Source: a virus
Lineage: Duplodnaviria; Caudoviricetes
Virus record (IMG/VR): IMGVR_UViG_3300032328_000581
Span: 34,887 to 98,886 of that record
Length of the DNA stretch: 64,000 nucleotides
Strand: one strand, 5' to 3'
Under the pieces are notes generated by a model. That model searched no databases, had not been told where the DNA came from, and saw nothing but the letters and a program-made list of their open reading frames with translations. The stretch's first letter is position 1; each line of letters begins with the position of its first letter. The translations under genes were made by a program, and so were the position numbers. Shown here one piece after another: positions 62,703-62,985 of this stretch.

Positions 62703-62985
62703 TTGAGATAGGCAGGAGATACACTGGAGAGAAGCACGATTGTCACTGAGGATACACAAATCACTTTGGAGGCTATATCGGAGTGGTGGGAAGTATGGAA
62801 GAAACAATCTGGACGGCCAGCATAAGGTTAGAGACACCCAGCGGGTAATGTTAGCCCTCTTATGCTGTTCGTTGAGCCTATGGAATGCGCAACTATGGGC
62901 AGAACTCAACGATGCAAGAAATCCCCGGAGAGTGAGCCTCCCGATAATTCCGTATGTAATTCAGTGTATCTCCTACTTATCTCAA
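62703..62985 (+). ncRNA. Candidate structured RNA E (24-bp closing stem, multibranch interior)
   Basis: TTGAGATAGGCAGGAGATACACTG pairs with CAGTGTATCTCCTACTTATCTCAA; internal stems 62818-62867 and 62869-62912. Confidence 0.6.

Follow-up and report, generated by a model that had tools for sequence, protein, structure and literature searches.

A previously undescribed family of RNA with a new fold is carried by one lineage of roughly 99-102-kb uncultured freshwater actinobacterial phages. We describe it from the copy at 62703-62985 (+ strand) of a 64-kb stretch of viral DNA, here called the window, which is the right-hand part of a 98,886-bp IMG/VR virus record. We demonstrate that the fold exists and is conserved, that it belongs to one strand and to these phages alone, and that RNA libraries contain the interior of the element. 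With moderate confidence we read the element (module E, or E3) as a new gene for a compactly folded phage non-coding RNA that would be released by cleavage of its closing stem, P1, and would act in trans.

RESULTS

The element lies in a divergent cluster of small genes

Nearly all genes of the window are on the - strand; the + strand carries, from ~60,250 onwards, a small-gene cluster that is divergent from the structural genes. The element is inside this cluster, between two ORFs of 49 aa each: a gene for a basic CxxC...CxxC zinc-ribbon protein upstream (62535-62684, +) and a gene with an AAGGA ribosome-binding site downstream (63017-63166, +). In at least 7 relatives ~22 nt separate the stop codon of the zinc-ribbon gene from the element, and other relatives have no such gene; on the downstream side, relatives have another gene, or an intrinsic terminator comes first. 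Such a terminator stands ~45 nt after P1 in about half of the members and is missing from the window's clade and several others. The zinc-ribbon protein could be a partner of the RNA or a mere neighbour; it has a weak, sub-threshold match to an Elf1-type zinc ribbon. When ten neighbouring small proteins were compared with Pfam, none scored above the cut-offs, and a neighbouring 577-aa protein gave no match in tblastn.

In L073, the closest relative of the window copy, one contig joins the right end of the record (64000 in the window, 98886 in the genome) to its left end (genome 1-1396), with ~140 extra bases between them. Thus the ends of the record are not physical, and the + strand cluster continues into its left part; either the record is circularly permuted or assembly breaks account for its ends. 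A whiB gene lies in this left part, at genome 1497-1709, and WhiB domains are also encoded at 28884-29108 and 39396-39581 (the last at 4510-4695 of the window); together these three genes point to an actinobacterial host. Within the + strand cluster, a strong intrinsic terminator (a 14-bp stem followed by a T-run) at 61450-61482, just before a short hairpin that we call E2, implies at least two transcription units. Another stem-closed element, E1, is flanked by two tiny ORFs, at 60983-61171 (62 aa) and 61319-61432 (37 aa), that are extremely rich in cysteine (CECPCYC and CICGPCECDC are examples of their runs); a Pfam search of the 62-aa ORF gave no match.

A C-rich motif, CCCCCGAAAAAG, abuts P1 at 62689-62700 (+); in most relatives it reads TTCCCCGCGAAGT and is sometimes duplicated. 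From this motif on, the window and L073 are homologous; before it, the left flank of L073 is unrelated. Further motifs (GGTAAGTCATCAGGTAG, GTAATACACC and one or two copies of TTCCCCGCGAA) recur before the RNA element and before some short hairpins. They were collected from the 60 nt before the element in L109, L112, L121, L127, L129, L142, L145 and L154, and also in L076, L134 and L084. No canonical promoter hexamers are evident near them in the relatives, and the motifs could be signals for a phage-specific factor. In the window, GGTAAGTCAT also occurs after the element (62993-63002).

A long inverted repeat encloses the element

The preliminary description of this DNA reported a 24-bp stem between 62703-62726 and 62962-62985, with 22 Watson-Crick pairs, one G-U and one C-A. 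Our repeat search returned exactly these arms (24 nt each, 92% complementary, 235 nt apart), the G-U pair being G62711-T62977 and the mismatch C62713-A62975. The repeat is beyond chance: no other two 24-mers of the 64-kb window that lie within 400 nt of each other are complementary at 22 or more bases, and when the window was resampled 20 times with a first-order Markov model, the best pairs reached 18-19 of 24. In addition, a 301-nt stretch of the + strand folds at -101.7 kcal/mol (z = -4.35), and none of 100 shuffles was as stable. As the - strand gave an almost equal value (z = -3.81), the single sequence is insufficient to name the strand.

Homologs form a family restricted to freshwater phages

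We gathered copies from IMG/VR and freshwater metagenomes using the conserved 3' block AATTCC-4 nt-GTAATTCAGTGT as the query for scanning IMG/VR and JGI metagenomes, and removed chance matches without the 5' arm before counting the family. This gave 29-30 distinct copies of 279-299 nt, 51-91% identical to the window, on about a dozen IMG/VR contigs plus lake metagenome contigs; L073 is the nearest at 91%. BLAST among the related loci placed diverged copies just 3' of homologs of the 49-aa ORF. An initial scan with a 5'-arm pattern had returned 70 matches, all of which except L073 had no partner arm and were discarded as chance, and a more degenerate second viral scan found no new members. A covariance model, R1, built from the aligned members picked up one more, far more diverged copy, L078 (139 bits), which keeps P1, P2 and the pseudoknot by means of different sequences.

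Outside this lineage, the 3' pattern had 16 matches among 185,579 prokaryote species (one genome each), none with the 5' arm or the family context; at the sensitivity of that scan, cellular genomes thus yielded no member of the family. A blastn search of 50,697 GenBank phage records gave no match for the region or for a member of the major clade. All DNA and RNA runs that contain the stretch are labelled as freshwater, lake or wastewater metagenomes. No Rfam 15 model (of 4227) matched the 64-kb window at its gathering score, and around the element, with E up to 10, there were only chance-level snoRNA and CRISPR-repeat matches outside it or at its edge. Nine other family members had no consistent Rfam match, and we found no description of the RNA element in the literature.

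The element is present once per genome (in the 98,886-bp genome, E1 and E2 share the stem motif only). A 99.8-kb contig, L005, has the neighbouring genes and no element. The genes up- and downstream vary among members, and homologous flanking genes are always on the strand of the element. This patchy presence with varying neighbours is ordinary mosaicism of phage early regions.

Covariation defines eleven helices, including a pseudoknot

RNAalifold on a MAFFT alignment of the family (A5) yielded 64 pairs, half of them (32) with compensatory double changes. In an independent count on A5, which covered 1850 pair cells, 97.4% were standard pairs. The observed covariation was reached in 0 of 500 column shuffles, and sliding the 3' partners by 1-3 columns left 36-44% pairing. 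When the pseudoknot was included (alignment A6), 95.6% of cells were paired and 45 of 72 pairs had double changes. The model contains eleven helices that are kept in 95-97% of cells, one of which is the loop-to-internal-loop pseudoknot; a search for covarying helices in addition to these eleven found none.

By family covariation P1 is two pairs longer than the repeat search indicates and joins a purine-rich 5' arm (62703-62728, TTGAGATAGGCAGGAGATACACTGGA) to a pyrimidine-rich 3' arm (62960-62985, TTCAGTGTATCTCCTACTTATCTCAA), both on the + strand. Counted over 24 pairs in 30 sequences, 98.9% of its cells are paired, and 10 pairs have double changes when L078 is included. Because both arms covary, they must coexist in one transcript. 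An internal loop of conserved bases lies between P1 and P2 (62738-62743, GATTGT, with 62944-62949, ATAATT; +), which is 98.9% paired with three double-change pairs. P3 (62748-62751, GAGG, with 62937-62940, CCTC; +) is 99.2% paired, and in 9 sequences A-U is exchanged for G-C. The preliminary description had paired GATTGT with ACAATC (62804-62809). This pairing stands as an alternative for the 5' strand in the window's small clade, where one compensatory change agrees with it, whereas the rest of the family pairs that strand with GCAATT, close to the 3' end, to form P2.

The interior contains three hairpin arms, all on the + strand. In the P4-P5 arm (62752-62796), P4 (62752-62754 with 62794-62796) and the P5 core (62762-62765 with 62782-62785) are 100% paired, and all pairs but one have double changes. 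The P8-P9 arm (62819-62866) consists of P8 (62819-62827 with 62857-62866) and P9 (62837-62839 with 62843-62845), which are 99-100% paired with double changes in 10 of 12 pairs. The third arm (62868-62912; TCGTTGAG with CTCAACGA, and inside it GCCTATGG with CTATGGGC) is the most variable part of the family, with 90.8% pairing and double changes in all four of its pairs. A further helical segment, P6-P7, encloses the P8-P9 arm and the third hairpin, and the single strands of the junctions, e.g. GAAGAA and GCAAGA, are invariant. The other interior stems that had been named from the window alone, ATCACTTTGG/TCGGAGTGGT (P5), CAGCATAAG/CTTATGCTG (P8) and TCGTTGAG/CTCAACGA (the third arm), have all turned out to be covarying helices of the family, and even between the window and L073 there are compensatory changes in three interior stems, the third arm included.

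The pseudoknot pairs the apical loop of P5 (62771-62778, GGCTATAT; +) with the 3' internal loop of the P8 arm (62848-62856, ATGTTAGCC, with one bulged T; +). The two loops are complementary in every sequence, in at least four versions: GUGUAACUAU/AUAGUUAC, GGCUAUAU/AUGUUAGYC, GUACAACUAU/AUAGUUGU and GGAUUUAGA/UCUAAAUUCC. In a fixed register 77% of the cells are paired, a figure that is lowered by a bulged base in one subclade. The column pair 78/159, for example, is A-U in 16 sequences, C-G in 13 and U-A in one, and L133 has two double changes. In the modelled structure this long-range contact argues for a compact three-dimensional fold.

The alignment also identifies the strand. Across the pairs there are 220 G-U cells versus 16 A-C cells, so that 97.4% of cells are paired when the + strand is read and 86.3% when the - strand is read. 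Moreover, R1 scores the copies at 213-313 bits on the gene-sense (+) strand and at ~30 bits on the other (222 and 30 bits for the window copy). The G-U excess and the R1 scores together mean that the functional form of the element is a sense-strand RNA, and neither a protein nor a DNA site.

RNA contigs from lake metatranscriptomes lie within the element

Four metatranscriptome runs from four studies each contained a small share of a 1.7-kb query, and their RNA contigs (Logan contigs, not reads) were placed on 62000-63700. Five contigs of 194-236 nt, representing two alleles, lie with their whole length inside the element and have no loose end: X15 (62733-62962, 230 nt), X16 (62732-62966, 236 nt, a variant allele at depth 17), X18 (62724-62949, 226 nt), X19 (62772-62966, 194 nt) and one at 62749-62959 (212 nt). 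The end at 62966 is shared by two studies with two alleles, and the starts at 62732/62733 occur in two. The segments 62342-62683 and 62969-63700 were uncovered in the four runs; we did not count contig gaps as evidence. If the assembly used k = 31, as we assume, these ends are not at the expected graph breaks: for allele-specific unitigs the 5' break would be expected at ~62714, 30 nt before the first variant at 62744.

The outermost extent of the contigs, 62724-62966 (+), delimits a candidate mature RNA of ~243 nt. C62724 pairs with G62964; ends at 62724 and 62966, close to where the stem reaches its top, would therefore be staggered by a 3' overhang of 2 nt, which hints weakly at RNase III-type excision, the 5' and 3' ends in question being contig ends from different runs. 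If a start of the mature RNA at or after 62724 is real, the RNA is made by processing. It is also possible that in the window's clade an internal start site is used instead of processing, from TACACT at 62720-62725, 7 nt before the contig starts at 62732/62733; most members have CACACT here.

The preliminary description had envisaged an excised or circularised RNA, visible in RNA-seq as a species of ~250-280 nt. That contigs from four studies stop inside the element near the top of the stem weakly favours excision; contigs, as opposed to reads, are no guide to true ends, strand or level, and RNA libraries may contain DNA. Circularisation is unsupported: none of the five contigs has a back-joined junction (which contigs can miss), and the phage has no RtcB.

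The closing stem has relatives in the phage genomes

In the genome, the stem core AGATACAY with RTGTATCT recurs only in E1 (61172-61295, +) and E2 (61527-61612, +). E1 is a shorter stem-closed element whose arms, AGATAGGCAGTGAAAGATACAC and GTGTATCTCTCAC, resemble those of P1. E2 (GGAAGATACATAGG ... CCTATGTATCTCTCAC) belongs to a family of short hairpins whose consensus is approximately TTATCAGGTAG..GTGGAAGATACATAGG in the 5' strand and CCTATGTATCTCTCACTCTCTATCTGGAGA in the 3' strand. In related phages these hairpins lie 10-15 nt before the ribosome-binding sites of varied small genes (L081:4767-4849, L096:5675-5737, L100:3420-3482 and about 20 more), and the gene-sense strand is the more stable one in 17 of 23 cases. 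Their stem is ~27 bp long, imperfect and highly conserved, with fixed A-C and U-U/U-C mismatches. They are reminiscent of the RNase III sites of T7 or of the promoter-stem-loop cassettes of T4, and they may be cassettes for RNA processing or translational control. Through its stem, our element is part of this wider set; its cargo is unique.

One more stem-closed element (arms GGAAGCGTACTTAC and GTAAGTACGCTCCC, 180 nt apart) occupies 63793-64000, at the end of the window. Its counterpart in L073 (L073:1688-1924) matches R1 weakly on both strands (21-23 bits), probably via the long stem alone.

DISCUSSION

A proposed path to a stable, trans-acting RNA

We propose that the element is a gene for a compactly folded non-coding RNA that is transcribed from the + strand together with the divergent small-gene cluster. 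The precursor would fold into the 26-bp P1, coaxial P2 and P3, and three hairpin arms, two of them tied together by the pseudoknot. P1 would mark the transcript for processing at double-stranded RNA. An endonuclease specific for dsRNA, the best candidate being the host RNase III, would cut near the top of P1 and free from the early transcript a stable RNA of ~240 nt, which may then act in trans on a partner, most plausibly a protein. With 24-26 bp and covarying arms, P1 offers the helix of about two turns or more that RNase III uses. Searches of the phage genome, each with positive controls, found no RNase III, no TROVE domain, no RVT_1 reverse transcriptase domain and no RtcB ligase, which makes a host dsRNA endonuclease the simplest agent. 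On the other hand, a 26-bp helix could protect the ends of the RNA instead of being cleaved.

Two known kinds of RNA were considered and rejected: a bacterial Y RNA bound by Ro/Rsr (no TROVE domain and no Rfam match of the YrlA type) and a retron msr-msd RNA (no adjacent reverse transcriptase and no RVT_1 domain in the genome). We regard it as speculative that the excised RNA represents a new class of phage RNA of complex fold and has a biochemical activity of its own, as a ribozyme or as a scaffold that captures RNA polymerase, the ribosome or an RNase while the phage takes over streamlined freshwater Actinobacteria; just as tentatively, the conserved closing stems of the element and of the hairpins near it would then be a phage-specific RNA-processing code.

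Alternative readings

It is possible, if unlikely, that the element is a cis-acting cassette for mRNA processing or stability, with no function in trans and an interior that is mere ballast. Its stem would then work as the RNase III sites between the early genes of T7 do, cutting the polycistronic transcript and setting how stable or how well translated the genes on either side are. P1 indeed resembles the arms of the short hairpins that are sited 10-15 nt before ribosome-binding sites, and members without the terminator have the ribosome-binding site of a gene within ~25 nt after P1. But ballast would not keep an interior of ~235 nt with eight covarying helices, a pseudoknot and invariant junction strands; the flanking genes are not constant, and the terminator ends half of the members. 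Nor do the flanks pair with each other in a way that would mask a ribosome-binding site (mean z = -0.2 versus shuffles); pairing of the anti-Shine-Dalgarno or anti-terminator kind was dropped on the same value.

An improbable reading is that the RNA works like a riboswitch or a protein sensor and controls the terminator or the next gene. Its complex fold, pseudoknot and conserved junction nucleotides would suit such a regulator, as would the intrinsic terminator that about half of the members have ~45 nt further on, and CCCGC, which occurs both in the C-rich 5' flank and in the 3' half of this terminator. However, a P1 of 26 bp is far too stable to be switched, the terminator is missing from several clades besides that of the window, the genes that follow are unrelated and no riboswitch in Rfam matches. 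A terminator in about half of the members, together with unrelated downstream genes, is more easily reconciled with a self-contained RNA gene than with the control of one particular gene.

We consider it improbable that the RNA processes itself, either as a new self-cleaving ribozyme or by circularising after excision. A complex conserved fold with apparently discrete ends is what one would expect of such an RNA, but there is no match to a known ribozyme family, the phage has no RtcB, and hinted ends that lie opposite each other with a 2-nt stagger are the mark of a protein dsRNA nuclease.

The readings at the level of DNA and of protein fare worst. The preliminary description had named a MITE-like DNA element as an alternative to its main inference, and this reading, like that of any other DNA-level site, is effectively refuted. 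The element shares with MITEs its terminal inverted repeats and a patchy presence among relatives (L005 has no copy), and the left flank differs between the window and L073. In contrast to MITEs, it occurs once per genome, always in the orientation of the genes, and the covariation of its interior is of the RNA type (the 220 G-U versus 16 A-C cells). As the preliminary description had noted for the window, a target-site duplication is absent: in 29 copies the flanks have no direct repeat across the element.

That the overlapping 87-aa ORF (62740-63003) is a real gene has next to no probability, for although its frame is open for 94 codons in the window, it has a TTG start and no ribosome-binding site, the nearest relatives carry single-base indels in it, every other member has stops or frame-shifting indels, the longest open + strand stretch in 28 other members is 36-80 codons in varying frames, and no reading frame is conserved among homologs. 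The homologs behave in the opposite way to the one that was to speak against the RNA, namely an ORF kept and a pairing lost: they keep the pairing and lose the ORF. The main inference drawn from the window, that of a discrete structured phage RNA as opposed to a gene or a MITE, agrees with all of this, as the fold covaries and is strand-specific, the ORF is unconserved, and the element is single-copy without target-site duplication.

Comparison with known systems

The precursors of 16S and 23S rRNA have flanking sequences that pair into long-range RNase III helices, and the early genes of T7 are separated by RNase III sites, hairpins of ~50-60 nt without cargo. As in these systems, a structured RNA is enclosed here by flanks whose pairing makes a helix that exceeds 20 bp, the element is part of a polycistronic transcript of early type, and the ends at which the contigs hint face each other across the helix with a 2-nt 3' overhang. 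In contrast, there is no sequence relation, the cargo is a new folded RNA and not rRNA or mRNA, and cleavage is a prediction.

GOLLD, ROOL, HEARO and raiA are large bacterial or phage non-coding RNAs of complex fold and undefined function that came from comparative genomics. Discovery through covariation, a multi-branch fold, a tertiary contact and a link to phages or metagenomes are common to them and our element, which is smaller than GOLLD and ROOL and alone has a long closing stem of conserved sequence. The pRNA of phi29 is likewise a structured RNA that is encoded by a phage and transcribed early, with a helix between its 5' and 3' ends and base-paired tertiary contacts of its loops. The likeness is one of analogy only: phi29-type phages are small protein-primed podoviruses, the loop pairing of pRNA is intermolecular, and a packaging role or multimers of our RNA would be analogy only.

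The nearest documented biological parallel is found in the Cluster A mycobacteriophages L5, D29 and StarStuff, which produce abundant, stable, processed non-coding RNAs from the early promoter Pleft; these RNAs are toxic to the host and their function is undefined (PMC5712189). Both cases concern actinobacterial phages in which a non-coding segment lies among the small genes of an early region, and RNA species shorter than the transcribed region are reported there and hinted at here. Unlike our element, the Pleft RNAs have no reported conserved fold, and blastn finds no sequence similarity between the two. By analogy with these systems, the RNA described here would be of a recognisable kind, a stable phage non-coding RNA excised by means of a stem, and it is a new family of that kind.

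It is rare to find a structured non-coding RNA whose tertiary fold is well supported, and most of those from phages are without an assigned function. The host group, freshwater Actinobacteria, is among the most abundant of lake bacteria and hard to culture, and the RNA gives a concrete, testable handle on how the phages of these bacteria use RNA. The alignment of 30 sequences together with R1 could be the starting point for a new entry among RNA families. If RNase III does cut the closing stem, the cluster would be a second early operon organised by conserved double-stranded RNA processing signals, outside the T7-like phages.
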